A program made the translations under genes and the position numbers. Shown here piece after piece: positions 27,627 through 60,047 of a stretch of 64,000 bases of DNA (positions are counted from its first letter, which is position 1; the number at the start of each line of letters is the position of its first letter). Origin of the DNA: Bacteroidales bacterium (GTDB lineage Bacteria; Bacteroidota; Bacteroidia; Bacteroidales; UBA10428); assembly GCA_965230395.1 (NCBI GenBank), contig CBDDKV010000002.1, positions 1,920,947 to 1,984,946 on the forward strand, written 5' to 3'. The notes under the pieces are model-generated. The model was not told the origin of the DNA, did no database searches, and was given only the letters and a program-made list of their open reading frames with translations.

Positions 27627-29147
27627 ATGAAAATATTTTCTTCAGCCCAAATTAAACAGATAGATGCCTATACCATAGAAAATGAACCTGTTGCGTCGGT
27701 AGACCTGATGGAGCGTGCAGCTAACGAGCTTTTTGTCTGGATAAGCAAACGGTTTAAGAAAAAAACTCAGTTTCTTTTCCTTATAGGGCCAGGAAATAAT
27801 GGCGGTGATGGCTGGGCGTTGGCAAGAATCCTGTTTCATTACGGGTATGAGAATATTAGGCTTTATCTTCTTGATATATCTGATAAACTTTCTCCTGATT
27901 CAGAAATTAACAGAACACGGCTAATGGAGGAAACGGACGTCAAAATCAAGAAAGTCCAATCAGAAGATGGTTTTCCGTATATCTCTGAAGACGATGTTGT
28001 TATTGATGCTTTATTTGGCACGGGACTTTCCAGGCCTTTGGAAGGGGTAAGCGCAAAACTTGTTGACTATTTGAATAATTCCCCAAAACGCAGGGTAATA
28101 TCAGTGGATATACCAAGTGGGCTTTGGGGGGAAGATAATTCAACGAACACACAGGGCAAAATTGTTCAGGCAGACATTACATTGTGTTTTGAATTTCCGA
28201 AGCTCTCTTTCTTTTTTTCAGAAAACGAGAAGTATGTTGGGAAATGGCATGTTTTGCCAATAGGTTTGCACAAAGAAATAATTCATGCGGAATTCTCACC
28301 ATACAAATACCTGAAAAGGTCAGATATAAAGGAGCTGATAAAGATTAGAAGTAAGTTTTCGCATAAAGGAACATACGGGCACGGACTGATAATTGCCGGG
28401 AGCTATGGTATGATGGGGGCGGCGGTACTGGCGTCGAGGGCTGCCATAAGAAGTGGGGCAGGTCTTGTATCGGTGCATATTCCGCGGTTAGGATATGAAA
28501 TTATGCAAATGTCTGTTCCAGAGGCGCTGGTGTCAATCGATGAATCGGATCTTATTTTTACAGGCCTTAACCATACCGATAAATATTCAGCCATTGCCAT
28601 AGGTCCGGGCATTAATACAAAAACAAATACCAGTCGCGCAGTAAACAAACTGCTCGAGAAAGCAAAAATACCACTTGTAATAGATGCTGATGGGCTGAAC
28701 ATACTTTCAGAACAGAAAGAATGGCTGGCAAAACTGCCGGAAAATACTATATTGACACCGCACCCTAAAGAATTTGACCGGCTGACCCATAATCACGATA
28801 CGCACTATGCCCGCTTTGTCACTCAGCAGGAATTTTCGAAAAAGAATAAGGTAGTTGTTGTGCTAAAAGGTGCCCATACCTCTATTAGCACACCCGATGG
28901 AGATGTATGGTTTAATACAACAGGAAACCCGGGAATGGCAAAAGGGGGAAGTGGAGATGTGCTGACCGGAATTATTTTAGCTTTGCTTTCACAGGGCTAC
29001 GGTCCGGTGGAAGCAGCCCGGATAGGGGTGTACATTCATGGTTTGGCCGGCGATATAGCGTTAAAAACTTACGGGCTACATGCTTTAACACCATCAGATA
29101 TAATATGTAAATTAGGCCGTGCGTTTAAAAAAATAGAACAAAATTAG
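27627..29147 (+). CDS. nnr: bifunctional NAD(P)H-hydrate repair enzyme (epimerase + ADP-dependent dehydratase)
   Basis: The YjeF-N part (GPGNNGGDGWALAR) and the YjeF-C carbohydrate-kinase part (GNPGMAKGGSGDVLTG) are fused in one 506-aa ORF. Confidence 0.9.
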   Translation: MKIFSSAQIKQIDAYTIENEPVASVDLMERAANELFVWISKRFKKKTQFLFLIGPGNNGGDGWALARILFHYGYENIRLYLLDISDKLSPDSEINRTRLMEETDVKIKKVQSEDGFPYISEDDVVIDALFGTGLSRPLEGVSAKLVDYLNNSPKRRVISVDIPSGLWGEDNSTNTQGKIVQADITLCFEFPKLSFFFSENEKYVGKWHVLPIGLHKEIIHAEFSPYKYLKRSDIKELIKIRSKFSHKGTYGHGLIIAGSYGMMGAAVLASRAAIRSGAGLVSVHIPRLGYEIMQMSVPEALVSIDESDLIFTGLNHTDKYSAIAIGPGINTKTNTSRAVNKLLEKAKIPLVIDADGLNILSEQKEWLAKLPENTILTPHPKEFDRLTHNHDTHYARFVTQQEFSKKNKVVVVLKGAHTSISTPDGDVWFNTTGNPGMAKGGSGDVLTGIILALLSQGYGPVEAARIGVYIHGLAGDIALKTYGLHALTPSDIICKLGRAFKKIEQN

Positions 29148-29161
29148 TTTTACCTAAATTA

Positions 29162-30274
29162 TTGATGAATAGAAAAAATAACATGACACGACGATTTCAG
29201 CTTTTTTTATTATTGCCCTTGCTTATTGCTTGCAATACATCGCGAATTTCAACAACGAACATTCAGGATTTGGCTTCTTTTGAGCCTGAAGCTAATATTT
29301 ACGCCCTTCCGCAGACACGGTTGGTCATAACAGTAAAGGTGGTAAGATCAACGTTTTATCCCGGTCCTTTCAGTAAGTATTCAGAGAAATATCTTGGTAT
29401 TGAGGGGGCTCAGAATATATCAAATGTTCATTGGGACATTACAGACATTAGTTTCAGTAAATTAACCGAGCCGGATAAGGAGCATTTTTATTCAATCAAA
29501 GGGCAGTCCGGCTTATTTGAGGAAATTTCTGCATTAGAAAGAGATGGGCTACTATTCTACCCTGCCAGCTTAAACAGCTTCCAGGTTTTTTATAACGATG
29601 CGATTGATCCGGTAGAAGAGATACATTACACCGACCTGTCAATTAGCCCGTTTTTTTATGATAAAGAGAAGAAAAAGAAATCGGGTGCCCGCGATTCAAA
29701 CTTCTATGGGATACCTGTTTCAAAAGACTATGTTCAGGAAAAGTCAACAGCGGAAAAAGCAAAAGAAGCGGCGGCCTTTATTTTTAAAATGCGTAAGCGA
29801 AGGTTTAAACTGCTGGCCGGGCAATATGACGTATTTCCGGAAGGAACGGCATTAGAGACCAGTGTGAGGGAGATTAATGAACTGGAAGAAGAGTATTTAT
29901 CTCTTTTTATCGGTAAGGTTGAGACGGATACCATACAGAAAGTTTTCACCTATACTCCGGTTGCCAGGGAAAAATTGCAAAGAACAACCATATTCCGGTT
30001 TTCTTCAGAGACCGGGTTCAGCAATGCAGGAAGTTCTATTGGCGTGCCTATTGTAATGGAAGTCGCCGATTTAGATAAGACAGGGGTTTTAGAGCAGCTT
30101 CAGTTGCCCGTTTCGGCATCATCTTATCAGGATATCCTGTTTTATAGAATACCAGATAAGGGCAGGGTTAAAATACTTTATGGGAGCCGCATACTAAATG
30201 AGGCTGAGGTTCCGGTCTGTCAGTTTGGAGCATTGATCCCAAAATATATTTATCCACGCAAGGCGAAGGACTAA
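29162..30274 (+). CDS. conserved lipoprotein of unknown function
   Basis: A signal peptide with a lipobox-like end is present (LLLPLLIACNTS). No catalytic motif is recognisable. Confidence 0.65.
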   Translation: MMNRKNNMTRRFQLFLLLPLLIACNTSRISTTNIQDLASFEPEANIYALPQTRLVITVKVVRSTFYPGPFSKYSEKYLGIEGAQNISNVHWDITDISFSKLTEPDKEHFYSIKGQSGLFEEISALERDGLLFYPASLNSFQVFYNDAIDPVEEIHYTDLSISPFFYDKEKKKKSGARDSNFYGIPVSKDYVQEKSTAEKAKEAAAFIFKMRKRRFKLLAGQYDVFPEGTALETSVREINELEEEYLSLFIGKVETDTIQKVFTYTPVAREKLQRTTIFRFSSETGFSNAGSSIGVPIVMEVADLDKTGVLEQLQLPVSASSYQDILFYRIPDKGRVKILYGSRILNEAEVPVCQFGALIPKYIYPRKAKD

Positions 30275-30304
30275 AAATAAAATAAATGTTGAATCGAACG
30301 GATA

Positions 30305-30841
30305 TTACTTAATAGGCGATTCATAGTTTGTTGACCACGCTTCCCATTTCTCTGTTGTATAGTGGTCGCCGCCGATAAATTTCAGCATTTTGTCAAAAGG
30401 TTGTGCTTCCGTAAACCCTTGTTGGAGGTGAATAATACGAGCCTGTTCATCAAGAAAGACCACCGACGGATAGCTCAACTTATTATTTAACAGGGCCACA
30501 GCCAGCTGATGGTAACCTTTTGTTCCCTGAGTGGCGACATATTTTAGGGTGTCTTTTCCCAGGATTACATCTTCTTTCTGTTCGGCATTAAACTTAACAG
30601 GATAGTATTTCTTATTTAAGTATTCAGCAATTACAGAATGGCTGAACGTTTTTTTGTCCATCACTTTGCACCAGCCGCACCAGTCTGTGTATACGTCAAC
30701 CATTATTTTTCTGGGCTGCATCTGGTTAAGTTTAAATGCTTCCTCAATGGTATACCATTTTACCCCTTGTGATACATCCCCTTGGGAATAAGTAGATAAA
30801 GATAATACAGTGGTGAAAATAAATAAGAAAACACGCTTCAT
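30305..30841 (-). CDS. secreted thioredoxin-fold protein
   Basis: It has a signal peptide and the redox motif DWCGWCKVMD. Confidence 0.8.
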   Translation of the reverse strand: MKRVFLFIFTTVLSLSTYSQGDVSQGVKWYTIEEAFKLNQMQPRKIMVDVYTDWCGWCKVMDKKTFSHSVIAEYLNKKYYPVKFNAEQKEDVILGKDTLKYVATQGTKGYHQLAVALLNNKLSYPSVVFLDEQARIIHLQQGFTEAQPFDKMLKFIGGDHYTTEKWEAWSTNYESPIK

Positions 30842-31077
30842 AGTATTTACAATATTTGTCTAGTTTTGTAACGCAAAGTAACGAATTTTGTTGCAAATTC
30901 CGTTGTTAATCAAAAGTTAAGGGACCGGTTTTCTGAGAAGGTGGTTTTTGTTTGTGTAATTTATTAATAATCAATTTTTTTCAGTGTTTGTGCGGGCAAA
31001 AAAATATAATACTGTAAGCAAAACCGGCAAGAGCAGATTTTTCAGGCTATATTCGTATTTTAAAAAAGTATAAATAA

Positions 31078-32526
31078 ATGGGAAAAGAAATTATAGATTT
31101 ATCACCTTCCTTGTTATGGAAGCATTTTTATAACCTAACTCAAATTCCTCGTCCATCAGGACATGAAGAAGGGGCAATAACTTATATAGAGAAGTTTGCA
31201 ACAGAAAATAACCTCGATTACATAAAAGACGAAACCGGCAATGTAATTGTAAAAAAGGCCGCATCTAAAGGTAAGGAAGAAGCTCCGGTTGTAATCCTTC
31301 AGTCGCATGTTGACATGGTTCCGCAGAAGAACAGTGACAAGGAGCACGATTTTAAAACAGATCCCATAGAGACCATCATAGATGGCGAATGGTTAAAGGC
31401 CAATAAAACAACCCTTGGTGCCGACAACGGGATCGGGTGCGCTGCCATGCTGGCCGTTCTTGAGTCGGAAGATATACAGCACGGAGGAATCGAAGCTTTG
31501 TTTACAGTTAATGAAGAAGCAGGAATGGATGGTGCATTCGGGTTAAAACCAGGAGTGCTAAAAGGAGAAATCCTGATTAACCTTGATTCGGAAGATGAGG
31601 GGGAACTGTTTGTTGGTTGTGCCGGAGGAATAGATGTTTCGGCAACATCGACTTACGAAGAAGAAGATGCCCCGGAAGGAAAGTCCTATAGAATGACAGT
31701 GTCCGGATTAAGGGGAGGGCATTCAGGGTTGGATATTGCTTTGGGCAGAGGAAATGCAAATAAAATTACAGGCAGGTTTCTTTGGAGCGCATTAGCGAAT
31801 TTTCCGATAAGAATTGCCCGGGTGAAAGGTGGCGATTTAAGAAATGCCATACCACGCGAAGCTTTTGCGGATATAATTGTCCCTTCTGAGTTTGAAAATG
31901 AATTTATGAATTATTTTACCAACTTTCAGCATGCTATTAGTAATGAGTATAGGTCTGCCGACCCTCAGGTAAAACTAACACTGGAGACCGTTGGCGATCA
32001 TGAAAAGGTAATGTCGGAAGCGGATGCGAAGCGCTTCTCGGGAATGCTTAATGTGGCTCATAACGGAGTGGTAAGGATGAGCAATGAAATGCCGGGGACT
32101 GTTGAATCTTCCTTAAACCTGGCCATTACTGATTTCAATAACGGCGAAGTCAATATGTATTACCTGGTGCGTAGTTCAGTGGATAGTGTAAAATATGCAG
32201 TAGCAGAACAGGTATCGGCAATGCACGAGTTGCTTGGCTGTTCCATTGAAGTAGGCGGCGATTACCCGGGATGGCAGCCAAACACAGAGTCACACGTGCT
32301 TAAAGTAATGTCTGAAATTTATAATGAACTCTATAATAAAACGCCAGGGGTCCTGGCCATTCATGCAGGGCTGGAATGTGGAATAATAGGTGGAAAGTAC
32401 CAGGGACTGGATATGATTTCTTTTGGCCCCACCATTCGGTTCCCGCACTCTCCCGATGAAAAAGTACATATAGAAAGCGTTGGAAAGTTTTATAACTTCC
32501 TTGCGCACACATTGGAAAAGATATAG
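31078..32526 (+). CDS. pepD: aminoacyl-histidine (Xaa-His) dipeptidase, M20 family
   Basis: The PepD-typical N-terminus is present (LWKHFYNLTQIPRPSGHEE...ETGNVIVKK...LQSHVDMVPQKN), along with GADNGIG and NEEAGMDGA metal-ligand blocks. Confidence 0.9.
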   Translation: MGKEIIDLSPSLLWKHFYNLTQIPRPSGHEEGAITYIEKFATENNLDYIKDETGNVIVKKAASKGKEEAPVVILQSHVDMVPQKNSDKEHDFKTDPIETIIDGEWLKANKTTLGADNGIGCAAMLAVLESEDIQHGGIEALFTVNEEAGMDGAFGLKPGVLKGEILINLDSEDEGELFVGCAGGIDVSATSTYEEEDAPEGKSYRMTVSGLRGGHSGLDIALGRGNANKITGRFLWSALANFPIRIARVKGGDLRNAIPREAFADIIVPSEFENEFMNYFTNFQHAISNEYRSADPQVKLTLETVGDHEKVMSEADAKRFSGMLNVAHNGVVRMSNEMPGTVESSLNLAITDFNNGEVNMYYLVRSSVDSVKYAVAEQVSAMHELLGCSIEVGGDYPGWQPNTESHVLKVMSEIYNELYNKTPGVLAIHAGLECGIIGGKYQGLDMISFGPTIRFPHSPDEKVHIESVGKFYNFLAHTLEKI

Positions 32527-32924
32527 AATATAGGTAAAACCGGAGGCTGTCCAAAACGTCTTATGAGCGTCAGGAACAGAATAGCATATTAATATAAGGG
32601 TTATTCTTTAGTTTGCTACGCTATGCTTGCTTTGTTGGGCAACGGCAGTTTTTATTGATTTTTTGGACGGCCTCATCGGTTACGTTTCGTTTTTTTGCTG
32701 TTGATCTATTTTTTTAATTCAAAAAAGTTTGGGAACCAACTTTATTTATACTCAAAAAGTTATATTTGACCAAGCGAATAGTGATTGCGCTTACAGGAAA
32801 TAAGTAGCTGGGAAGGGGCAAAATAAATATCAGATAACACCTTGTATATGCCTGATTTTTTAGCTATATTCATAGTTCCCTGAAGTTGATTTAAACAAAA
32901 AACACCAAACTTGAATTAAATACT

Positions 32925-34799
32925 ATGTCTGCAGAACAAGAGAAAATGTCACAACAAAGGCTGTATAATGGCTTGAAGCATAAACAAATATCTAAAGAAG
33001 AAATAAATGACAGCCTTCTTTTTGAAGTTGCCTGGGAAGTATGTAACAAAGTAGGCGGAATTTATACCGTTATTCAGTCTAAGGTTTCAACTGTTTTAGA
33101 TAAGTGGGACGCAGAAAAATATGTTCTGCTTGGTCCTTATATTGAAGAACAGGCTGCGGCAAATTTTGAGCCCGTTTTTGATTCAAACGACAAGGTAGCA
33201 AATGCAGTAGATGAAATGAACCGGAATGGCTACAGGGTTTTTTACGGACATTGGTTAATCGCCGGCCGCCCAAGGGCCATACTGTTCGATCCGTATTACA
33301 TTTTTTCGGAGTTGGGAGGGCTGAAATACAGGCTTTGGGATCTTTATGGCATTTCTACGCCAGAGCATGACGATTTAATAAATAAGTTGGTGTCTTTTGG
33401 GCACCAGGTATTTCGTTTTTTTCAGATATTCTCGGGGTTGAATGCCGGAGAAAATAGAATGATAGCACACTTCCATGAATGGATGGCAGGCATATCCATT
33501 ATGGATATCAGGCGCGAGAACTTGCCGGTTAAGATAGTTTTTACTACGCATGCAACATTGCTCGGGCGCTACCTGGCAATGAACGATCCGTTTTTCTATG
33601 AGCACCTGCCGCAATATAACTGGGGGCACGAGGCCCGGCACTTCAATGTTGAACATATTGTAAATATAGAACGGGCTGCAACCCGGGGGGCACATGTATT
33701 TACAACAGTGAGTGAAATAACAGGAGAAGAATGTAAGTACTTCCTGGAACGGGAACCTGACGTAGTGCTGCCTAACGGGATTAATGTAGACAGGTTTGAA
33801 GTTATGCACGAGTTTCAGAATCTTCACCGAATCTATAAAGAAAGGATTAATGAGTTTGTAATGAGCCACTTTTTTCAGAGTTATTCTTTCGATTTGGACA
33901 AAACGCTTTATTTCTTCACCTCAGGGCGTTACGAATATAAAAACAAGGGGTATGATTTAACACTGGAAGCCTTGGCCCGTTTGAATTACAGAATGAAGAA
34001 GGAAAATATTGATATGACCGTGGTAACCTTCTTTATTACGAAAAACCCGTTTACGAATATGAACCCGGGCGTGTTGCGCTCAAAAGCAATGCTGGAAGAA
34101 ATTCAGCGAAATTGCGAGGAGATGCAGGGGCAGATAGCCAAAAAATTCTTTTCAACGGTAGCTTCTAATAACCGTAGCTTTACCATGCCCGACTTAAACC
34201 AGATGATAGACGACTATATGGTGCTCCGGTTAAGGAATAACCTGCAGTCGTGGAGGTCAAATAGCCTGCCCCCAATAATAACGCACACACTTTGTGACGA
34301 GCCGAAAGACGAGATTATGAACTTTTTGAAGGTGAGTAACTTACTGAACCATGCTGAAGATAAAGTAAAGGTCGTTTACCATCCGGACTTTATAACCACA
34401 TCGAACCCTTTGTTCCGAATGGAATACTATCAGTTTATCCGCGGGTGCCATCTTGGGGTTTTCCCCAGTTATTACGAGCCGTGGGGATATACGCCATTGG
34501 AATGTATAGCAAGTGGGGTCCCTTCAATAACAAGTGATTTGGCAGGCTTTGGCTCGTTTGCACAGGCAAATGTGAAAGATTATGAGAAGGCCGGGTTGTA
34601 TGTTTTGGAGCGCAGGAATAAAGATTTTGGCAGGGCTGCCGATGAACTGGTGGACATAATGATGAATTTTATTCATTTAAACCGTCGTCAGCGAATAATG
34701 CAGAGGAACAGGGTAGAGGCGGCATCAATCCAGTTCGATTGGGAAAAATTAATAAGGTATTATTCTTATGCATATGGAATGGCTGTACGCAGTCAATAA
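32925..34799 (+). CDS. glycogen synthase, GT3 (eukaryote-like) family
   Basis: It contains FEVAWEVCNKVGGIYTVIQSK, FHEWMAG and the C-terminal YYEPWGYTPLECIASGVPSITSD block typical of GT3 glycogen synthases found in Bacteroidota. Confidence 0.85.
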   Translation: MSAEQEKMSQQRLYNGLKHKQISKEEINDSLLFEVAWEVCNKVGGIYTVIQSKVSTVLDKWDAEKYVLLGPYIEEQAAANFEPVFDSNDKVANAVDEMNRNGYRVFYGHWLIAGRPRAILFDPYYIFSELGGLKYRLWDLYGISTPEHDDLINKLVSFGHQVFRFFQIFSGLNAGENRMIAHFHEWMAGISIMDIRRENLPVKIVFTTHATLLGRYLAMNDPFFYEHLPQYNWGHEARHFNVEHIVNIERAATRGAHVFTTVSEITGEECKYFLEREPDVVLPNGINVDRFEVMHEFQNLHRIYKERINEFVMSHFFQSYSFDLDKTLYFFTSGRYEYKNKGYDLTLEALARLNYRMKKENIDMTVVTFFITKNPFTNMNPGVLRSKAMLEEIQRNCEEMQGQIAKKFFSTVASNNRSFTMPDLNQMIDDYMVLRLRNNLQSWRSNSLPPIITHTLCDEPKDEIMNFLKVSNLLNHAEDKVKVVYHPDFITTSNPLFRMEYYQFIRGCHLGVFPSYYEPWGYTPLECIASGVPSITSDLAGFGSFAQANVKDYEKAGLYVLERRNKDFGRAADELVDIMMNFIHLNRRQRIMQRNRVEAASIQFDWEKLIRYYSYAYGMAVRSQ

Positions 34800-34834
34800 T
34801 ACGAAGAGTTGAAAGCAGGTTTGCTTTAAAAAAT

Positions 34835-34882
34835 AAACTCAGGTTGAAAGGAAAGTTATTTTTCAAACCTGAGTTTTTTTAT
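34835..34882. terminator. bidirectional terminator between glycogen synthase and glyA
   Basis: The stem AAACTCAGGTTGAAA (34835-34849) pairs with TTTCAAACCTGAGTTT (34861-34876). It is flanked by A-runs and T-runs, and convergent genes lie on both sides. Confidence 0.7.
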
Positions 34883-34947
34883 CGTAAGAAATCAGAATTT
34901 TACTGAACACCAGCAATTATATGCATGTACAATAAACTCTTTTTTTA

Positions 34948-36228
34948 TTAATAAGCAAACAATGAATAGCCGGCCATTAGTTCATTGACGCGCTTACGTA
35001 CATCTTCAATTACCGTTTCGTTTTCAATGTTTGTAATTACCTCATCAATCATGTCGACTATTTGGGGAATAGCACCTTCTTTTACCCCGCGGGTTGTGAT
35101 GGCAGCAGTTCCTACCCGGAACCCTGATGTTTGGAAAGGGGAACGGCTGTCGAAAGGTACCATGTTTTTGTTTATGGTAATATCAGCTTTCACCAGTGTG
35201 TTTTCCACCTGTTTTCCTGTAATATCCGGAACTTTGCTTCTTAAGTCGATAAGCATGGAGTGGTTGTCTGTACCCCCTGAAATAACCTTATACCCCTTAG
35301 AAATAAAAGTTTCAGCCATAGCCCGGGCATTTTTTATTACCTGCTGACCATATTCAAGAAAACTGTCGGAAAGCGCTTCCCCAAAAGCTACAGCTTTAGA
35401 GGCAATAACATGTTCAAGTGGCCCTCCCTGTATCCCTGGAAAAACAGCACTGTCCAGCAATTGGGCCACGGTTTTTACTTTTCCTTTTGGGGTAGTTATT
35501 CCCCAGGGGTTCTCAAAATCTTCAGCCATTACGATTAGTCCGCCTCTTGGTCCGCGAAGTGTTTTATGTGTTGTTGTTGTAACAATATGGCAGTGCGGAA
35601 AGGGGTTGTTCAATAGTTTCTTGGCAATAAGCCCGGCCGGATGGGCTATGTCGGCCATAAGAAGGGCTCCAATATTATCAGCAATTTTTCTCATTCTGGC
35701 ATAATCCCAGTCGCGCGAGTAAGCCGAAGCTCCGGCTATTATTAACTTGGGTTTTTCAGCAAGGGCCGTAGCTTCCATTGCATCATAATCAATCAATCCG
35801 GTTTCTTCGTTAACTTTGTAGCTAACAGGTCTGTATAACATACCTGAAGAGTTTACCGAAGAACCGTGCGAAAGGTGGCCGCCGTGCGAAAGGTCAAATC
35901 CCAGAAAAGTGTCGCCGGGTTTTAAAATGGTCATTAAAACCGCCATGTTTGCCTGTGCTCCCGAGTGGGGCTGAACGTTAGCCCAGGTTGCCCCGAATAA
36001 TTCTTTGGCCCTTTCTATTGCCAGGGTTTCGGTTTCGTCAACAACCTGGCACCCCCCATAATATCTTTTCCCAGGATAACCTTCTGCATATTTATTGGTT
36101 AAATAAGAACCCATGGCTTCCATTACCTGTTCGCTTACAAAGTTCTCTGAAGCAATAAGTTCAATTCCGTGTAATTGTCGTTGGTGTTCCTGTTCAATCA
36201 GGTCAAATATTTTTTTGTCTCTTTCCAT
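34948..36228 (-). CDS. glyA: serine hydroxymethyltransferase
   Basis: SHMT-like sequence runs along the full length, including [14 protein letters not shown] with the PLP lysine. Confidence 0.95.
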
Positions 36229-36400
36229 CAGAAATCAGATTGAATGATTAAATACTTAAAAGCACGCAAAATTAAGCTTTCCAAACATTATTTAAAAGTA
36301 AGGTTAACAAGTTATGAATTAAAAGTCAATTTATTGAGAAAACAGGAACTGACTTTTTACAGGAAATTCTTACTTTCGGCTTGAATTAAAACCGAAAGGG

Positions 36401-36892
36401 ATGACAAATAGAAATGAAAGGCCGGTTCTTTTATCTGTTTTGTGCATATTAACATGGGTTGGCTCTGCATTTACCTTTATTGGGTTGTTACTTCTCCAGT
36501 GGTTGGTTTCTTCCCTGAAATCAAAAGTCAGTTTAACCCAGGACGAGAAGGATATTCTTTTGGATATCAGGGATGATGAGCTTCTTGATGTTTTTGGGGC
36601 TGGTTTTAGAGAGTTGGTTTCTACAATAATAAGTTTGGTGCTCCACTTCTCCGAGTTAATCTTAATAAGAATATTGGGGGTTTTAATGGTCTTTGTCGGG
36701 TCCCTTCTTATGTGGAGGATGAAGAAGGCCGGCTTCCTTTTATTTTTAGCAGGGAAAGTAACCATTATCCTGGGCATCCTTGTTTTTTTCAGAGAAACCG
36801 GTTTTGCAATCCAACTCATTTCATACACAGTAATAGCATCCATTTTATTTGGTTCGTTGTATTCGATCAATCTTAAATACATGAAAGAATAG
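36401..36892 (+). CDS. small four-TM membrane protein (paralog A)
   Basis: It is paralogous to 37025-37510. Shared blocks are ERP.(L/F)L(S/T)VLCILTWVGS.F, ...LMW(R/K)(M/L)KK.GF.LF..GK and NLKYM. Confidence 0.7.
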   Translation: MTNRNERPVLLSVLCILTWVGSAFTFIGLLLLQWLVSSLKSKVSLTQDEKDILLDIRDDELLDVFGAGFRELVSTIISLVLHFSELILIRILGVLMVFVGSLLMWRMKKAGFLLFLAGKVTIILGILVFFRETGFAIQLISYTVIASILFGSLYSINLKYMKE

Positions 36893-37024
36893 TGGGGGCT
36901 ATGACAGGGTAGAAATCGTGCAACTTAGTAAGAAAACAGAAGAATATTAAACCTGGGCAGGCAATAAAAAAACAGCAAGTATATAAAAATTTCATATTTT
37001 CGATTTAAACCAAAACTTATAATT

Positions 37025-37510
37025 ATGACAAAAGAAAATGAACGCCCAACATTTTTAACCGTGTTATGTATTTTAACCTGGGTAGGCTCCGGATTTGTTT
37101 TAATGTCACAGTTGTTTTCGTTGGCAATGGCCCCTATGATTAAGGCAACCAGCGGTTTTGCACAGGCAGGAATGGAAGAGGCGATGGATGAGGTGGCTGC
37201 TGAAGCGCCTGGTTTAGCACCGTTTTTTCAAAAATGGATGGGAGGATCGCTACAAACAATGGAACACTTGACCGAGTTAGTCTTAATAAGGTTAATAGGT
37301 ACAATATTTGTGCTTATTGGTGCAATTTTAATGTGGAAACTGAAAAAGACGGGGTTCTTTTTATTTGTAGGCGGAAAATTAATTATTATTGTTGGGGTAC
37401 TTGTTATCCTGGGAGGAACTGGTTTTGCCTTTTTGTCTATAGCCTTCTCATTAATAGTGGCTATCGCCTTTGTTATCATGTATGGCGTTAATTTAAAATA
37501 TATGGACTAA
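37025..37510 (+). CDS. small four-TM membrane protein (paralog B)
   Basis: It is a tandem paralog of 36401-36892 with the same length and the same conserved blocks. Confidence 0.7.
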   Translation: MTKENERPTFLTVLCILTWVGSGFVLMSQLFSLAMAPMIKATSGFAQAGMEEAMDEVAAEAPGLAPFFQKWMGGSLQTMEHLTELVLIRLIGTIFVLIGAILMWKLKKTGFFLFVGGKLIIIVGVLVILGGTGFAFLSIAFSLIVAIAFVIMYGVNLKYMD

Positions 37511-37524
37511 ACAACAAAACAGAG

Positions 37525-37887
37525 ATGGATTTAGAAAGGGTAGATGATAATTCAGACAACAGGCAGTACGTTAATAATACGGTTGTGAATAAGCAGCAGT
37601 TGCCTAACGCCAGTACTGTTTTGGTAATGGGGATACTTTCGCTGGTTTTAAGTTGTGGAATAGGGCTAATACTTGCGATTATAGGATTAAACCTGTCAAA
37701 AGAAGGTGTAAGGCTCTGGCAGGAAGACCAAATGGGATGGGACGGGTACGGCTCACTGAACGCCGGAAGGGTTATGTGTATAATAGGACTTTGCCTGAAC
37801 GGGTTGGTAGCGCTTTATTTTCTGGTCATATTCCTTTTTGTGGGTTCAATATTCGGGACCTTTGCGAGTTTTCTGGGAACAATATAA
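37525..37887 (+). CDS. small two-TM membrane protein (DUF4190/CCC-motif-like, tentative)
   Basis: It contains LPNASTVLVMGILSLVLSCGIGLILAIIGL and a second TM helix. A hairpin follows at 37921-37951. Confidence 0.6.
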   Translation: MDLERVDDNSDNRQYVNNTVVNKQQLPNASTVLVMGILSLVLSCGIGLILAIIGLNLSKEGVRLWQEDQMGWDGYGSLNAGRVMCIIGLCLNGLVALYFLVIFLFVGSIFGTFASFLGTI

Positions 37888-38252
37888 ACAGGTTCAGGGC
37901 AGGAAAATATAAAAAGTAAGAAAGGCTGGCCTTAACTTTTAGGCAGCCTTTCCTGTTATGGATAAACTGAATTAATCTTCAAAACATTACGTCAAAGTTT
38001 TATACCTGACAGCGTTCAAATAATAAAACCAGAACGTGTACATTCTTTTGTTTTAACAGTTTGGCCGGTTTAATGTTTAGGTACTATTTGAAATTTGCCC
38101 CGGGAGAATGTTCTTCACATTCCATTTAATAATCCTAGAACCGTCTCTTAATATACTTCCGGCTTCAAATTAAGTTGAGAGGGTAAGGGGGGTTTGTTGC
38201 TTGATGTCGGCCTGAAAGGCCAGGTTAATACAACCCGGTAGCTAGTGCATTA

Positions 38253-38744
38253 AGTTATAAATATCGTATTGTATATTATTATCTCATTTCTTTATTTCTA
38301 CAAGGTACGGTTTGCAAAGCGTAGCCATAGCTACGGCGAAAAACTTTAACACAGCAGAAAGGAAAAAGAAGGGTGAAATATGAAATGTTATTTTGTGATC
38401 GCACTACTAGAGGGCCTGAGAAAGTATTATAGGGCCTGTAAGCCAAAAGAATACCTTTTTGAAGCACCAGGCAAGAAGTACGGTGCAGAAAGTGTAGCAA
38501 AAATAGTTGTCCGTACAGCGCGTAAAGCAGGGATAACAAAGAAGGTTACCCTCCCCCCCATACCCTGCGGCACAGTTTTACTACACACCTGCTTGAAGCA
38601 GGCGTTAACCTAAGGGGTATTCAAGTACTGCTTGGGCACAATTCAACAAAGGGCAGAGAGATATACACACATGTAGCAAGCCATACAATTCAGAATATAA
38701 TAAGTCCATTGGAATTCTTATATTTGAAAGAAAACAAACAATAA
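38253..38744 (+). pseudogene. tyrosine recombinase relic (5'-truncated, at least two frameshifts), same strand as the cassettes
   Basis: Frame 0 (38277-~38400) reads IISFLYFYKVR...TQQKGKRRVKYEMLF. Frame 1 (~38400-38558) reads [54 protein letters not shown]. Frame 0 from 38559 reads [54 protein letters not shown], with the stop at 38742-38744. This gives box I Arg, KGK, HxLRH, LLGH and the Tyr in YTHV. The second frameshift lies in a C7 run (38553-38559). There is no ORF for an N-terminal domain upstream. Confidence 0.8.
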
Positions 38745-38768
38745 ACGACAAAACGGTTCGATGAAAGG

Positions 38769-38811
38769 AAAATACCATTACCTTTTTTAAAAGTTATGCT
38801 ATTTTGTTGTT
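38769..38811 (+). repeat. attI-like junction motif ending in G|TT
   Basis: AAAATACCATTACCTTTTTTAAAAGTTATGCTATTTTGTTGTT lies immediately 3' of the recombinase relic. Near-identical copies end at 50449, 59332 and 61316. Sequence diverges completely right after the GTT in all four. Confidence 0.65.
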
Positions 38812-38846
38812 AGCATGCATTAGAAAACAGTACCCTCCCTAAATAT

Positions 38847-40106
38847 ATGGAAACAAAGATTAAAGATAATATTGATAATCCAGAGCAACTTGAAAAGTTG
38901 TATCGAGCTGATAAGAAAGGATTTCAAAAAGCATTCTTCAGTATTTATAGCGAGATTGCGGATTTTAAAATGGCGGACTTTTGGAAAGCAAGATTAGAAT
39001 TTAATTTCCAAAGTGATTCCAAGATAAATGTGGAAAAGAGTGATGTTTTATTCCTAATAATTACCTGTTTAATAACTGGATTCTTAGTTAAAATACCACA
39101 ACTTTTTGATATTAAACTAAATGATTATTTCTACTACGAAAAGAATGCTGGATTAATAATATTATTGGGATTATCTGCATATTCATTCCTTACAAAAAAA
39201 CAGATAAACTTTAAGCATCTGATAACTTCAGTTGTGGTGTTTAGTTTTTCTGCTATCTATATAAATCTTTTACCTTCTGACAGAGATAGCCATTCGATTA
39301 ATCTAGCATATATACATTCGCCTTTACTCTTGTGGTGTTTGTATGGATTGGTTTTTATTGACTTTGACACAAAAGACAAAACAAAACGAATTGATTACAT
39401 AAAATACAATGGAGATATTGCGATTCTTACAGCAATAATATTAATTGCTGGGGGGATTCTTACTGGTGTAACACTTGGATTATTTTCAGCGATTGATTTA
39501 AACATCGAACGTTTTTATTTTGATTACATTGTTGTTCTTGGATTGGCCTCTTCTCCAATTGTTGCAACATATATCGTCAGAAACTTTCAGACAGTAACGA
39601 ATAAAATTGCTCCGATTATTGCAAGTATATTCAGCCCTCTGGTGTTGATTACTTTGATAATATACTTGGTAAGCATTTTATTAACAGGCAAAGACCCATA
39701 TAATGACAGAGATTTCTTGATTGTTTTCAATATTATGCTTTTAGGAGTAATGGCAATTATAGTATTCTCATTTTCAGAGACATCAGTGAACAAAAAACAG
39801 AGATTTAACGAACTGACATTATTTGTTTTAGCAACCGTAACACTGATAGTTGATTTAGTTGCATTATCAGCTATTTTATACCGACTTGGGGAATTTGGCT
39901 TTACTCCTAATAGGACTGCTGTTTTGGGTTCTAATCTTTTGATTTTTGGAAACCTCGTTTTGATAATGATTGATTTATATAAAGTTGGTTTTAAAGGAAA
40001 AGAGATTAAATCTGTTGAATTGACTATTGCAAGATATTTGCCAGTTTACACAGCTTGGACGATTTTTGTGACATTTGGATTACCGTTTATATTTGGTTTG
40101 AAGTAG
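38847..40106 (+). CDS. cassette 1: polytopic membrane protein, unknown function
   Basis: 419 aa. A soluble N-terminal ~55 aa is followed by about 10 hydrophobic helices. No motif is recognised. Confidence 0.75.
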   Translation: METKIKDNIDNPEQLEKLYRADKKGFQKAFFSIYSEIADFKMADFWKARLEFNFQSDSKINVEKSDVLFLIITCLITGFLVKIPQLFDIKLNDYFYYEKNAGLIILLGLSAYSFLTKKQINFKHLITSVVVFSFSAIYINLLPSDRDSHSINLAYIHSPLLLWCLYGLVFIDFDTKDKTKRIDYIKYNGDIAILTAIILIAGGILTGVTLGLFSAIDLNIERFYFDYIVVLGLASSPIVATYIVRNFQTVTNKIAPIIASIFSPLVLITLIIYLVSILLTGKDPYNDRDFLIVFNIMLLGVMAIIVFSFSETSVNKKQRFNELTLFVLATVTLIVDLVALSAILYRLGEFGFTPNRTAVLGSNLLIFGNLVLIMIDLYKVGFKGKEIKSVELTIARYLPVYTAWTIFVTFGLPFIFGLK

Positions 40107-40113
40107 GTATAAC

Positions 40114-40197
40114 GCATGCTAACACTTAGAATATAATAAATCATTCATTGCCCAAAAAAGTCCCGGCAAGGACTCAAAATGATTGATTATATTCGTT
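40114..40197 (+). repeat. attC-like site, short type (cassette 1)
   Basis: GCATGCTAAC (40114-40123) is the exact reverse complement of the cassette start GTTAGCATGC (38809-38818). The arms GAATATAATAAATCATT and AATGATTGATTATATTC match at 16/17. The central hairpin is AGTCC-CGGCAA-GGACT. The site ends in G|TT at 40195-40197. Confidence 0.75.
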
Positions 40198-40230
40198 GTT
40201 GAACGGAACCGGGAGAAACGGGCCAACACT

Positions 40231-40426: not shown

Positions 40427-40876
40427 TTACATAGGGATTGGTTGGCCTGTTTGTGTGGGTATAACATCAGGGCTTCCCCTGATAAGAGGTCTAAAAGAGG
40501 CAATACGCCGCATGGTGCCACATTTGCATTTAGGGCATTGATCGTGGGGGTGGCCAAAAAGCAAAACAAACAATTCCTGCCAGGGAATACCTTTTTTAGA
40601 TTCGGGCGCAACGGCACCCAAAGCTTCCCGGATGATAGCCAAACAGCTACCTTTCTTACAAGAACTGAAAATTCCATAGTGTCGGACCTTCATAAATCCG
40701 GGCGGAAGAATGTGCATTGACAGCCTTCGGAGGAATTCAAAGAAAGACAGGGACATTACGCCAATCCTGGAGTTTTTATAGTTGGGCCACGAAAAGTATA
40801 CGTTATCACCATCAATACCTTTAATGCGATGGTTACTAATAGCCACCCTGTGTGAGTACCTGGACAAATAATCCAA
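40427..40876 (-). pseudogene. IS91-family (Y2 HUH) transposase, C-terminal fragment only
   Basis: It reads YLSRYSHRVAISNHRIKGIDGDNVYFSW...FEFLRRLSMHILPPGFMKVRHYGIFSS and ends at its native stop. The N-terminal ~60 percent, including the HUH and zinc-binding parts, is absent. Confidence 0.75.
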
Positions 40877-41276
40877 ATATCCTGGAGTTTTCTAATAAGT
40901 ATTCATAAGTCCATAATCCATAAAACTTTTTGCCCGGAATTTTTGGCTGGATCAGCGATATTTTCATGGACGGTCAAGGCTAAATGTTTACACAATAAAA
41001 ATACTTGATTAAGATAATTGCACCCTTCGGTGGTTTAGCTTGCAAAAACATATAAGGCGTGCCCCATCCAACCGTATAAGTAATAACCCCTACTATATGT
41101 TTTATACAAAAAAAGCCGGAAAGCCAAATGGACCGTTCCTTTACAACCATTTTTATAACTTTATGCTAAAAATAGGGTGAAAAGCATACAACGTTATGTA
41201 AAATTCATTGCAAAACATTGTAATGCAACAAATTTTACACTTGTTATTGTACACATGCTAAAAAAATATACTGCAT

Positions 41277-42224: not shown

Positions 42225-42230
42225 CAGCCA

Positions 42231-42295
42231 GTGTACAACAAAGAACTAAGGTAAAAACCAAGTAAATTTCCCATAATTTTTCTTTTCGAACTACC
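42231..42295 (+). repeat. left part of attC-like site of cassette 3 (interrupted by IS110-family element)
   Basis: The first box is GTGTACAAC. The left arm CTAAGGTAAAAACCAAGTAAATTTC is the imperfect complement of the right arm GAAATCACTTATGTTTTCTTATA at 43686-43708. The right edge is approximate. Confidence 0.55.
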
Positions 42296-42330
42296 TGAGT
42301 TTTTGGGGAGGCAGATTCGAAAAGGAAAAA

Positions 42331-43299
42331 TTATTTTGTTGGTACTACTGACCTGAACTCTGGACTATACAGTACACCTGATTTGGCAATTGCCAAGGAC
42401 TGAGACAAGAGTTTATTGGGCACAGCAATCAGTGCAAGCTTTTTAGGCTTACCTTTATTCACCAGCCTTTCATACAGATCTCTAAATTGTTGATTGCTAT
42501 GGCAAGCAGTAAAGCTGCACATAAATAAGTGATTTCGAATTAAAGGATTACCTCTTTTTGATATTCTGGGTTTTCCCCTTACACTTGTTCCAGATGCCGT
42601 GATGACTGGTGAAAGGCCAAAGAAGGCCGATAGCTGTCCGGAGCTTTCAAATGATTGAAAACCATTGGTACAAACAATGAGCATAATCGCTGTCTTTTTA
42701 CCAATCCCTGGGATTGGTAAAAGATTGGTCAATAGCTCTTTTTCGTGCTCTTTTATTTGCTCTTCCAGCTCCTTTTCAAGTAACTTAATCTCGGAGTTGA
42801 TTTGACGAATTTGGCGTTTTAAAGATGTTATAATCCGTCCTTTGCCCCCTTTGTCAATAAAGCTATGTAGTTTGTTTTTAAGGGCGGTGTTTTGCTTAAA
42901 AAACAAACTTATTGTCGTATGTAAGTCTTTACAGTCATTAATATATTTAGGTAATGGTTTCCATCGGCTAATACTCTGCTCTTGGGCATATTTTACTATC
43001 ATTTTGGCGTCACTTTTATCCGTTTTATTATGCTGTAATTTCATTTGGATAAAGCGTTTAATTACCAATGGATTTATAACAGGGACATTAACCTGGTTCT
43101 CATGAAGGAATACAGCAAGCCGATGATAATAACTTCCGGAGTATTCCATAACACACCAGCTATTTGAATCAATTAGCAATAAGAACTCATAAAATCCATC
43201 TGAGGTATTCTTGAACTTTCTATGTCCCAGCTTAATACTCCAAACATCAAAAACCTTTTTTGAAATGTCAATACCAATAAAATGTGTATTTTTATTCAT
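42331..43299 (-). CDS. IS110-family (DEDD) transposase
   Basis: It reads MNKNTHFIGIDISKKVFDV...MEYSGSYYHRLA (RuvC-like DEDD N-domain) and has a C-terminal Transposase_20-type domain (IPGIGKKTAIMLI...SGTSVRGKPRISKRGNPLIRNHLFMC). The start is set at the ATG at 43299. Confidence 0.9.
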   Translation of the reverse strand: MNKNTHFIGIDISKKVFDVWSIKLGHRKFKNTSDGFYEFLLLIDSNSWCVMEYSGSYYHRLAVFLHENQVNVPVINPLVIKRFIQMKLQHNKTDKSDAKMIVKYAQEQSISRWKPLPKYINDCKDLHTTISLFFKQNTALKNKLHSFIDKGGKGRIITSLKRQIRQINSEIKLLEKELEEQIKEHEKELLTNLLPIPGIGKKTAIMLIVCTNGFQSFESSGQLSAFFGLSPVITASGTSVRGKPRISKRGNPLIRNHLFMCSFTACHSNQQFRDLYERLVNKGKPKKLALIAVPNKLLSQSLAIAKSGVLYSPEFRSVVPTK

Positions 43300-43341
43300 G
43301 ATAATTAATTTGTAAAGAACGATGCTACTTTGATATAGCAA

Positions 43342-43522
43342 CCTAAAAACAGGCTCTGCCCCCCAGAGAACTAATCGTATTTAAGTAGCGAAAGAGTGGT
43401 AATTTTCATTGTTGACTAGCTTTATGCTTTATGTATAAATTAATCTTGTCCCACTCTTCCGTTCTTTTAATTTTATTATGAAAATAAGAAATTGCAAACT
43501 TAGGATGTATAAAAAACATAAG
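43342..43522 (-). ncRNA. candidate IS110 bridge (guide) RNA region in the left end of IS #1
   Basis: This is the noncoding left end upstream of the transposase. It has the stem AGAGTGG / CCACTCT around a ~50-nt loop and the hairpin CTCTG-GGGGG-CAGAG. The relic copy at 63.6 kb changes TAA to TGG on one side and gains CCA on the other, lengthening the same stem. Assignment as a bridge RNA is by analogy only. Confidence 0.35.
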
Positions 43523-43639
43523 TGGATCAGTGGTTTACGGAAAGTTGGCACATTTACTCAGCTCCGCCAACCTTTAGCTCACGACCAAAGGGAGTAAATC
43601 TGCGATTTGACGGGTTGTTTTAAAAAAGTAAATTTGTGT

Positions 43640-43714
43640 CAAAACGCAAATTTGGCTCAGTGCAAATTGACAGGTATGAGCTTCGAAATCACTTATGTTT
43701 TCTTATATTCAACA
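43640..43714 (+). repeat. right part of long-type attC-like site (S4)
   Basis: TTGACAGGTATGAGCTTCGAAATCACTTATGTTTTCTTATATTCAAC follows the family consensus TTGATAGGT..GAGCTTCGAAAT + ~24 nt. About 115 nt between the IS end and this arm are unresolved. Confidence 0.55.
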
Positions 43715-43773
43715 TTTTACGCCATATAAACGGCCATGGTGCAATAAAATAAACTGATTTAGAGGAAAAATTA

Positions 43774-44352
43774 ATGAAAATATACCGCTTCATATTTATT
43801 ATCACGTTTCTAGTTCTTTCTATTTCTTGCGACTTTGCGAAACGGAAGGTAAAAGGAGGAATTAATAAGATTGCCCAAGAAGCAGGTGAATTTGTTGATG
43901 AATTTTTGACACTGCCTGACAGGACTGTGAAACGAGATGTTTTAGACAATGAATTATACGGGGAATGGATTTTAACAGGACAATCTTTGAAGTATCTAAA
44001 TAAACAACAAACTGATTATCCAGACTGGGAAAGCATAACTTACCCTTCGCTGAGATTTGAATTAAAGGAGAATAAAACTGTTGATGCTTGGATTTATAAA
44101 AAGTATCTGCCTATTTCATTTTTTAAATATCATGTAACAGTAAATGACTCTGCAGTAATATCAGGCAAATGGACAATAGGAAAAGATTCATACAATGTTG
44201 ATACAGCTTCGACTTATAAGAACAAACTCTTTTTGGATTTTAATATAAATGCAATTGTCAGCCTTGATATTGCCGAACAAGACGGGAAAATAATATTATG
44301 GTCATATATTGGTGACCCTGACGATTTGTACTATCAAGAGTACAAAAGATAG
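43774..44352 (+). CDS. cassette 4, gene 1: lipoprotein, unknown function
   Basis: It has a lipoprotein signal (MKIYRFIFIITFLVLSISC) and is 192 aa. Confidence 0.7.
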   Translation: MKIYRFIFIITFLVLSISCDFAKRKVKGGINKIAQEAGEFVDEFLTLPDRTVKRDVLDNELYGEWILTGQSLKYLNKQQTDYPDWESITYPSLRFELKENKTVDAWIYKKYLPISFFKYHVTVNDSAVISGKWTIGKDSYNVDTASTYKNKLFLDFNINAIVSLDIAEQDGKIILWSYIGDPDDLYYQEYKR

Positions 44353-44376
44353 ACAAATATCTTAGGAGATAAGACC

Positions 44377-44667
44377 ATGAATAATATTGAATACGGATTT
44401 AAAGTTAAACTTGTTTTTGAGAATGGCCTATCTGAGCAAGATTACGATTCTATAACTGATGAGTTCATAATGGATGCTATTGAAAAAAATGACCTTTTGT
44501 TTGGAGGCGGAGGTGATTTGAACGAGTATGAAGGTTTTGTTACATCGGCTGACAATAATAAAAGGTTAGATAATCATGATATTGAAAAGGTTAGAAAATG
44601 GATTGAGACTAAAAAGAAAGTAATAAAGAACTTTGAGTTAAGTGATAGAATTGATGCAAATAAATAA
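44377..44667 (+). CDS. cassette 4, gene 2: YggL/DUF469-like protein
   Basis: The pattern GFKVKLVFENGLSEQDYDSITDEFIMDAIEKNDLLFGGGGDLNEYEGFV...VRKWIE matches my recollection of the YggL family (GF.V...F..G.SE...D.FI...IE.N.L.F.G.G...EG). Confidence 0.6.
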   Translation: MNNIEYGFKVKLVFENGLSEQDYDSITDEFIMDAIEKNDLLFGGGGDLNEYEGFVTSADNNKRLDNHDIEKVRKWIETKKKVIKNFELSDRIDANK

Positions 44668-44670
44668 TAC

Positions 44671-44803
44671 GGCGTACACGCGGTCATAAAACATTACGCG
44701 GATAGTGCTAATTTTAAACTAAATAACAATTATTAAACAGTCGAGTAGCTTGATAGGTAAGAGCTTCGAAATGTGCAATCTTTCTTATTGCCATACGTTA
44801 GGG
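44671..44803 (+). repeat. attC-like site, long type (S1)
   Basis: The first box GGCGTACAC is complementary to the cassette-4 start ATTTTACGCC (43714-43723). The left arm is GCGGTCATAAAACATTACGCGGATAGTGC. The right arm is TTGATAGGTAAGAGCTTCGAAATGTGCAATCTTTCTTATTGCCATAC. The junction G|TTAGG is at 44797. Confidence 0.75.
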
Positions 44804-50449: not shown

Positions 50450-50531
50450 AGGCACAAGCGGAGGAGCGACTGTACAAATAATGATTCTAAACCGATAAAA
50501 AAGACAGAATAACATGATAGCCAACGCGCAA

Positions 50532-57002: not shown

Positions 57003-57031
57003 CGCATTTTGGCAGACCGTGAAATAATAAA

Positions 57032-57918: not shown

Positions 57919-57951
57919 GTAAGCTAAATTGAGTGATAAAATGAAATATGT

Positions 57952-59332: not shown

Positions 59333-59389
59333 GTGCTGCATGCGAAGACATAGGCTCGTGACTATTAAACCGATTGATTATAAAAATTA

Positions 59390-60030: not shown

Positions 60031-60047
60031 AACAGATTACCTCAGCA

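Follow-up and report, generated by a model that had tools for sequence, protein, structure and literature searches.

The stretch of DNA analysed here (the window) comprises 64,000 nucleotides (nt) of a Bacteroidales bacterium, and the feature under study, at 38253-38811, is the remnant of a tyrosine recombinase gene on the forward strand together with the short region that leads from it into an array of gene cassettes. The stitched translation of the remnant matches the Pfam family PF00589 (E 3e-18, profile positions 56-169 of 172), but recognisable recombinase DNA is confined to 38404-38550 and 38559-38744 of the forward strand, that is, about the last 115 of about 375 codons. We consider it likely, and hold this with good confidence, that the relic is the 3′ third of a recombinase gene which once headed and serviced this array and whose parent belongs to a Bacteroidota Xer/IntI-like family without the IntI insertion. 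The parts of the relic and the site next to it are as follows.

38404-38550, forward strand: relic segment 1, LLEGLRKYY...AGITKKVT, about residues 272-320 of a 375-residue intact homolog.
38553-38559, no strand assigned: C7 homopolymer that shifts the reading frame between the two relic segments.
38556/38559-38744, forward strand: relic segment 2, with HTLRHSF (box II His/Arg), LLGH, the EIYTHV tyrosine, SPLEFL and the C-terminal tail.
38770-38811, forward strand: attI-like site (43-nt motif), with the hairpin CATTAC 38776-38781 / GTTATG 38793-38798, a spacer and GTTGTT.

The placement in two frames was obtained by tblastn with five homologs and with a family hidden Markov model (HMM) built from 35 homologs. 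Such tblastn, HMM and PF00589 searches had been proposed in a first-pass annotation of the sequence, and they recover the remnant in two frames as the last third of the gene. Segment 1 is 49-55% identical in tblastn to the homologs P0016, P0002 and P0033, occupies approximately positions 85-143 of the family HMM and aligns to the homologs with a gap of 1 residue only, covering the place of the IntI extra domain. Segment 2 scores 90 bits against the family HMM (positions 143-197), is 64-72% identical in tblastn and also matches PF00589; its homology extends to 38726, and the TAA stop codon lies at 38742-38744. The first-pass annotation had pictured a relic without N-terminal domain that retains the box I Arg, KGK, HTLRHSF, LLGH and YTHV and is frameshifted twice, near 38400 and in the C7 run. 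The missing N-terminal domain, the last three motifs and the frame shift at 38553-38559 are all borne out, but the box I Arg, the KGK and the frameshift near 38400 are not. Neither the HMM nor frameshift-tolerant alignment detects anything recombinase-like upstream of about 38400: no family HMM match to profile positions 1-76 was seen there in any frame with all filters off, and the region from box I to KGK of two intact homologs aligns to 38150-38425 with a score of 23-24 against a shuffle mean of 24, 102-114 of 200 shuffles scoring equal or better. It may be noted that the supposed KGK sits in a purine-rich run where strings of K, G, R and E result in all three frames, and that the only GL motif gives GLQ in its frame, not GLR. 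The gene is 5′-truncated at about 38400 and not frameshifted there. With the box I Arg, the Lys and the two DNA-binding domains lost, the relic is unable to catalyse recombination; it is an inert pseudogene. By tblastn no further recombinase fragments were found in the window, including beside the IS91 fragment and inside the repeats of about 450 nt described below, and an Rfam scan of the window gave zero matches at gathering thresholds.

The closest database protein (P0001, 120 residues, 97% identical) is encoded on an ENA metagenome contig of 157 kilobases (kb), here called L001, from a sister strain. It is the same truncated open reading frame (ORF), beginning with MKCYF (window 38380) and staying open through the C-run, where L001 reads C5 instead of C7 (a CC indel at 38553-38554). 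The earlier proposal that one extra C restores the frame is right arithmetically, but the sister contig, which reads through, has two fewer C. The length of the C-run may be a later change, a sequencing difference or an assembly artefact; the question is irrelevant to function because the 5′ truncation by itself inactivates the gene. Over 10.4 kb, corresponding to window 28377-38811, L001 runs colinear with the window at 99.1% identity. Inside the relic, two substitutions separate the strains in addition to the CC indel, namely LLGH to LPGH and T to A, and each of them is non-synonymous. Relic and flank have the same density of differences, about 12 per kb, and the differences inside the relic, tiny in number, look like neutral decay. 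As both strains carry the same truncation, it must be older than their split.

Related loci were collected from a scan of one genome per species (80 loci) and from a metagenome scan (80 loci), and 165 loci entered the comparisons. Full-length members of the family are mostly about 375 residues long and consist of an N-terminal stretch of about 100 residues without a Pfam match, then a SAM-like domain, then PF00589. The N-terminal module bears the motif ...W-S/N-x4-W-x-V/I-P... (for example L052 9188-9500, L064 8696-9500, L034 and L077), is doubled in some members (540-580 residues) and might take the DNA-recognition role of the IntI extra domain. Hosts are mostly Bacteroidota: Flavobacteriales, Cytophagales, Sphingobacteriales, Chitinophagales/Saprospiraceae and Bacteroidales-type metagenome-assembled genomes. 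The nearest relatives of the relic (L006, L007 and L009) belong to Flavobacteriales-type genomes, and in a neighbour-joining tree the relic falls in a 38-leaf clade that contains the loci with a hairpin and GTT after the recombinase gene and no IS91-linked locus.

What defines IntI is an additional domain, about 35 residues long and close to patch III, which lies between the Lys of the beta-hairpin and the His of box II (Messier & Roy 2001, as cited in PMC9668308); IntegronFinder uses the profile intI_Cterm for it. In a residue-level alignment, residues 277-304 of a homolog (27 residues) stand opposite residues 177-247 of VchIntIA (70 residues), an interval about 43 residues shorter. The interval that holds the VchIntIA insertion corresponds to relic 38413-38500, where it is present and short, and the relic aligns to its homologs without a large gap from 38404 to the box II His. 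Proper alignment thus reveals no IntI insertion, the presence of which had been named beforehand as the result that would overturn a non-IntI reading. The KG lysine lies 64-65 residues from the HxLRH histidine in 148 of the 149 related recombinase ORFs of the fetched loci that have both motifs. The 67 codons counted in the first-pass annotation started from the unsupported KGK, but the conclusion of short spacing stands, and so does the view that the gene is Xer-like and not a canonical IntI. The NCBIfam models for XerA, XerD and XerC match the homologs in one stretch and the IntI models TIGR02249 and NF011946 in two; likewise, the best NCBIfam/PDB matches are XerA (NF040815, 4a8e) in a single stretch, and VchIntIA (2a3v) is matched in two. 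The curated cut-offs of the XerA, XerC, XerD and IntI models are not reached by any of the homologs tested. The family resembles XerC, XerD and XerA in catalytic-domain length and K-to-H spacing but differs from them in its array context, which is not a dif-related locus, and in its extra N-terminal domain. NCBI names some Mariniphaga and Maribellus members (P0159, P0173) 'site-specific tyrosine recombinase/integron integrase', the product name of NF040815, and the label 'integron integrase' is therefore already on insertion-less proteins in public annotation.

Intact members of the family head arrays. Among the loci with sufficient downstream DNA, all of the first four ORFs after the recombinase share its direction in 30 of 52; before the recombinase, all four ORFs are on its strand in 17 of 86. 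The spacers between the downstream genes hold repeated elements, which in L052 (Seonamhaeicola) and in L024 and L025 (Winogradskyella) are mostly about 135 nt long, with one of 199 nt, and end with ...nnnnAAC-GTATAAAATTAATTGC on the left and GCAACTAATCTTATAC-(6 nt)-CGTTG on the right. The cassette start in L052 is the reverse complement of the 3′ box of the same cassette in all four cassettes checked.

L052, pair 1: cassette start GTTGTGTTT, 3′ box AAACACAAC.
L052, pair 2: cassette start GTTGGCATAC, 3′ box GTATGCCAAC.
L052, pair 3: cassette start GTTAGCAAA, 3′ box TTTGCTAAC.
L052, pair 4: cassette start GTTGTGTGTA, 3′ box TACACACAAC.

A cassette start complementary to its own 3′ box is the mark of a unit that forms circles and recombines after G|TT. 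Thirteen sites gave a consensus fold of 18 pairs, of which 7 show compensatory changes; its outer AAC/GTT stem is set apart by an asymmetric unpaired spacer from the inner stem, which has single-base bulges. Individual sites fold better than shuffles (z -2.5 to -3.5). From those 13 sites, which come from three genera other than that of the window's organism, a covariance model (R1) was built and searched against the other 161 loci. It gave 77 distinct matches at E <= 0.01, of which 68 are downstream on the recombinase strand, in 36 loci. There were 0 matches upstream on the recombinase strand and 6 upstream on the opposite strand, with 1.5 times more upstream than downstream sequence. After the stop of the intact genes of the relic's clade a short perfect hairpin is found, typically ATAAACACAC...GTGTGTTTAT, followed by 2-7 nt and then GTT; this arrangement of hairpin, 2-7 nt and GTT follows the recombinase stop in 32 of 156 related loci as against 1.7% of shuffles. 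The sites have the folded palindromes, the complementary boxes and the G|TT crossover of integron attC sites, and we call them attC-like, a term judged from structure and logic only. The non-IntI recombinase lineage that the first-pass annotation had considered for these cassettes gains support accordingly: intact relatives head co-oriented attC-like arrays, and the window array fits the same model. That annotation had also remarked that the relic points in the same direction as the genes downstream, which is correct, and co-orientation is typical of the intact family.

Some further observations on the related loci may be added. In L048, L125, L108/L112, L158 and L131 matches to the attC-like model lie upstream on the opposite strand, which is the divergent layout of classical integrons. 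At least 13 tandem 21-nt repeats (TAAAACTCATGACTGCGGATG) occur inside the cassette array of Flavobacterium enshiense (L063 14078-14366). At the short homolog loci L002, L003 and L004 repeats are few or ambiguous, the pattern being clear only with full-length loci. Contigs, isolates included, often end 50-150 nt past the recombinase stop, and 33 of the 165 loci end within 300 nt of it (L013, L014, L018, L021, L058, L075, L077 and others, L014 right at the GTT); repeated or variable DNA is therefore suspected there. Short-read assemblies of the arrays seem systematically broken, and array frequency and size are probably underestimated.

The array of the window runs to the right of the relic, and its main features are these.

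38812-40206, forward strand: cassette 1, a DUF4153-like membrane protein gene (38847-40106) with an attC-like site (40110-40206).
41184-41251, forward strand: attC-like site 2, short 68-nt form, with a fold and the best R1 match in the window (27.8 bits, E 6e-5).
44669-44800, forward strand: attC-like site of the ~125-nt class, ending the cassette of a 192-residue gene common to the sister strain; member of a repeat family.
49986-50451, 58986-59335 and 60844-61318, forward strand: repeats of about 450 nt, 89-94% identical mutually, each ending in a hairpin and GTT and followed by a gene.
56867-57004, forward strand: attC-like site of the ~125-nt class after the 2014-residue gene, with a weak R1 match (11 bits).
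57786-57920, forward strand: weak attC-like site after a 248-residue gene, placed by alignment (R1 9.7 bits, E 3.3).
59903-60033, forward strand: attC-like site after a DUF3592 gene (R1 13.2 bits, E 0.39).
62726-62862, forward strand: attC-like site of the ~125-nt class after a Fic gene, with alignment (R1 18.8 bits, E 0.014).

When R1 was run on the window, all matches with E <= 0.05 fell within 40-63 kb and none in the 38 kb left of the relic. Cassette 1 begins with (G)TTAGCATGCATTA at 38809, and its 3′ box TAACGCATGCTAAC is the reverse complement at 13 of 14 positions (one mismatch). Its site folds as DNA at -13.4 kcal/mol (z -3.5) and is matched by R1 at 40115-40206 (E 0.002). The reverse-complement test is clear for cassette 1 and partial for three other cassettes of the window. 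The cassette after site 2 starts with ATTGTACAC and has GTGTACAAC as its 3′ box at 42231-42239; the left box CAGTGCCTGAC of the site at 56867-57004 is complementary at 8 of 11 positions to the cassette start GTTAGGCACAAG at 50448; and the left box CAGCACACAC of the site at 59903-60033 is complementary to the cassette start GTTGTGCTG at 59329. Four other cassettes, with starts at 44798, 59335, 61318 and 62855, gave no match with at most 3 mismatches in 14 nt, 59335 having a shorter complementary box at 59903. The boundaries of these cassettes are complicated by inserted insertion sequence (IS) elements and by the repeats of about 450 nt. These repeats show no recombinase similarity and no Rfam match; they act as cassette boundaries and may represent attC-like sites of great length, duplicates of attI regions, or carriers of promoters or small RNAs.

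Comparison with the sister strain places the start of the variable part exactly. The window and L001 share sequence through the GTT at 38809-38811 and are unrelated from 38812, and to the right of that point they have just two common blocks, 43506-44787 and 49986 onward. The first block stops inside the site at 44669-44800, whose L001 counterpart (15153-15289) is matched by R1 with E 0.001. Cassettes have been exchanged between the two strains. The divergence starting at 38812, together with the hairpin and GTT conserved after the recombinase stop in related loci, marks 38770-38811 as the attI-like site. A terminator reading of the relic-proximal hairpin was rejected, as the hairpin recurs at cassette boundaries, is without a T-run and keeps a fixed 2-7 nt before the crossover GTT. 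By way of its homologs the relic shares the K-to-H spacing of 64-65 residues, the hairpin with GTT and the co-oriented attC-like array of the Bacteroidota array-associated Xer-like recombinases.

ORFs of at least 100 residues from 38847 to 63530 are mostly on the forward strand, those on the reverse strand being IS-derived or overlapping longer forward ones. The relic has a guanine-plus-cytosine (GC) content of 42.5%, as compared with 33.0% for the array and 39.2% for the flank. The cargo includes a CN hydrolase, a Fic protein, a DUF3592 protein, a 2014-residue MG2/A2M-like protein and many proteins of no known family. The 2014-residue protein (50657-56701), for which the L001 ortholog shows the Pfam families MG2/A2M, CarboxypepD_reg and Plug, lies between a repeat of about 450 nt and an attC-like site; its unit would be a 6.5-kb cassette, far above the usual size. 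Within 42225-43522 an IS110-family element (transposase 42331-43341 on the reverse strand) sits inside an attC-like site, of which the left half is at 42225-42330, and the sequence shared with L001 resumes at 43506. Of this element only the non-coding 5′ end, about 150 nt, occurs a second time, at 63570-63714 (89% identical), and 58873-58943 holds 71 nt from the end of its 3′ coding part. IS110/IS1111 elements targeting attC sites are a known feature of classical integrons. A unit of 268 nt is duplicated in tandem at 48289-48752, inside a 647-nt gap that separates two cassette genes; the copies are 93% identical, and both contain the perfect palindrome CATGAGTGGTGCAACCACTCATG.

To judge from this anatomy, the family would catalyse cassette recombination on sites that act as folded single strands. 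In the intact layout the recombinase gene is co-oriented with the cassettes and has an attI-like site within about 100 nt of its stop, and the cassettes are separated by attC-like sites of 65-200 nt folding as bulged hairpins with AAC...GTT ends. The intact enzyme would bind the folded sites at their conserved inner stem; strand exchange, after GTT, would take place between the gene-adjacent site and the sites of incoming or resident cassettes, upon which an integrated cassette would begin with the complement of its own 3′ box. In the window the 5′ two-thirds of the gene were lost before the window strain and the sister strain split, and the remnant has drifted since. Since the strains have the same truncation and different cassettes, later turnover needs either a recombinase acting in trans (a paralog elsewhere in the genome) or whole-array exchange, which could proceed by homologous recombination between strains in the conserved flanks.

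Several points weigh against the view of the relic as the former head of this array. The relic-proximal hairpin is degenerate and has no significant fold (-2.7 kcal/mol, z -1.3), and the motif of hairpin and GTT also ends the three internal repeats of about 450 nt, so it is not unique to the array head. The site at 40115-40206 scores better on the reverse strand, and several sites of the window match R1 only weakly (E 0.4-3). The clade was assigned with about 105 residues, in a distance tree that has no bootstrap support. An intact copy at this locus was not found in any strain, and in the metagenome collection the best match to an intact ortholog is only 61% identical, with none carrying the 43-nt motif; that the gene once serviced this array is therefore inferred from position and family. 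Lastly, the presumed action of the family on these sites is read from their anatomy.

Among the alternatives, the one that survives best accepts the relic as a member of the array family but holds that it is retained for a function, as a promoter or terminator for the first cassettes or as an expressed 120-residue ORF in the sister strain. The same truncated remnant indeed occurs in two strains with differing arrays, the motif recurs ahead of three other genes and the ORF is open in L001. However, both substitutions between the strains are non-synonymous and one of them destroys LLGH, the frame is broken in the window, and the relic differs between the strains at the same density as its flank, so we regard retention for function as unlikely.

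The last of the points just listed leaves room for the view that the recombinase family merely adjoins the arrays, perhaps because it serves an island that uses them as its target, and that another enzyme moves the cassettes. IS110-family elements, known to target attC sites elsewhere, do occur in the window, but they are found in few arrays only. Against such a bystander role stand the sites themselves, which lie downstream on the same strand in 36 independent loci of several orders and never upstream on that strand, and the first crossover point, which is within about 100 nt of the recombinase stop. We therefore hold this explanation to be very unlikely.

Slightly less probable again is the proposal that the relic is left from the tyrosine recombinase companion of an IS91 element and is unrelated to the array, an alternative which the first-pass annotation had left standing. 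What recommends it is the following feature.

40427-40876, reverse strand: C-terminal fragment of an IS91-family Y2 transposase (PF04986, E 5e-23), inside the second cassette.

This fragment has no start and no partner recombinase. It lies on the strand opposite to the relic and 1.7 kb off, past a complete cassette with its own attC-like site, and it is absent from L001, where the same relic stands without any Y2 sequence. The 165 loci were surveyed by tblastn with the window fragment and two longer IS91 transposases. Y2 matches were obtained in only 6 of them, and in three (L059, L107 and L155) a recombinase of about 295 residues has a transposase gene abutting its stop, showing that IS91-linked recombinases exist in the wider family. 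Yet none of the six loci falls in the 38-leaf clade of the relic, and on ranking all 165 loci by distance from the relic the paired loci come 119th (L155), 124th (L059) and 165th (L107). The insertion-less IS91 and IS3 recombinases have been placed next to IntI, with those of IS91 in the same 'integron-like' subgroup (Smyshlyaev et al., 10.1101/542381). The IS91-associated recombinases are accordingly similar to the relic in being Xer-like, near IntI and without the IntI insertion, and they are about 47-54% identical to it over the C-terminal stretch, but neither their length of about 295 residues nor the abutting Y2 gene is found in the relic's clade. The relic itself has no co-oriented Y2 transposase immediately downstream and does not cluster with IS91-linked recombinases. 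It had been reasoned beforehand that a link between relic and array would fail if intact homologs were always paired with IS91 and never adjoined arrays, and the outcome is the opposite, with attC-like sites downstream in 36 loci and a Y2 match at 6 of 165.

That the relic is a decayed canonical IntI can be dismissed as hardly conceivable, for although it heads an attC-like array and its C-terminal 75 residues score 78 bits against TIGR02249, the stretch 38404-38559 covers the site of the extra domain in an interval about 43 residues shorter in the aligned homologs, none of which comes up to the IntI cut-offs, the gene orientation is not divergent, and a precise in-frame loss of 43 residues is implausible because 148 homologs have the same spacing.

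Among described systems, rAID-1 (Ross et al. 2019; 10.1101/471110) comes closest. It combines an XerD-like recombinase at the 5′ end with short genes in the same direction, a skew in GC and repeats between the genes that are 'reminiscent of integrons', and is defined by a recombinase at least 44% identical to BF9343_RS08045 of B. fragilis, at least 2 co-directional downstream genes with GC of 41% or less, and orphan immunity cargo. A follow-up of 2025 (PMC12247911) defines it likewise, the words 'integron', 'hairpin' and 'circular' being absent from it, and the passages retrieved from both papers give no site structure, crossover point or mechanism. The likeness lies in the conserved motif after the recombinase stop, the repetitive intergenic motifs, the Bacteroidia host and an array GC below that of the recombinase (here 33.0% versus 42.5%); the window also has two or more genes downstream of the relic that are co-directional and whose GC is 41% or less. 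For the SHMT protein of this host the closest named relatives, 87-88% identical, come from metagenome-assembled genomes labelled Bacteroidales. As to cargo, Pfam shows no clear immunity family in the window, only a weak SUFU match (E 0.0025), and most cargo is of no known family. The nearest relatives of the relic, in Flavobacteriales-type genomes, are a difference. When a Bacteroidaceae homolog was used as the query, the best 120 matches included no named B. fragilis protein.

With classical integrons the arrays have in common a recombinase gene, an attI-like site and cassettes bounded by folded imperfect palindromes with AAC...GTT ends (2016, PMC4889954; Ghaly et al. 2022, PMC9668308), as well as the asymmetric unpaired spacer, the single-base bulges of the stem, a crossover after G|TT that yields chimeric sites, and co-orientation of recombinase and cassettes. 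They differ in that the recombinase lacks the IntI domain of about 35 residues and has an extra N-terminal domain instead, and in their sites, most of which measure 130-140 nt and share a conserved GTATAAnnTnATTGC / GCAAC...TATAC stem. According to surveys with IntegronFinder, Bacteroidetes have almost no integrons (PMC9024848), and integron surveys demand the IntI C-terminal profile. In a literature search of incomplete coverage we found no description of the site structure, the crossover or a distribution beyond Bacteroidales.

The relic is the window's sole protein-level clue to the enzyme that built the array, and it points away from IntI. It leads to at least 36 independent loci in several Bacteroidota orders where an intact family recombinase heads an array with integron-type sites, and its value is that of a pointer to a little-characterised integron-like system. 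For rAID-1 this provides a concrete site model and a predicted crossover point, the recombination mechanism not being addressed in the passages seen of 10.1101/471110 and PMC12247911. For annotation it means that pipelines requiring the IntI C-terminal profile would not call members of this family IntI. Two accepted statements become directly testable, namely that the extra domain of IntI is needed for attC-type sites and that integrons are nearly absent from Bacteroidota. Tentatively, and as a possibility that we take seriously without yet favouring it, Bacteroidota may hold a phylum-wide second integron lineage with folded attC-like sites and G|TT exchange, whose IntI-sister recombinase never had the IntI domain and carries another N-terminal domain; rAID-1 of gut Bacteroidales would then be one specialised branch of it, and the relic of the window a decayed head whose cassettes kept turning over once the gene was dead. 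If this is true, the IntI-specific domain would be dispensable for integron-type recombination, and the reported near-absence of integrons from Bacteroidota would be a detection artefact.

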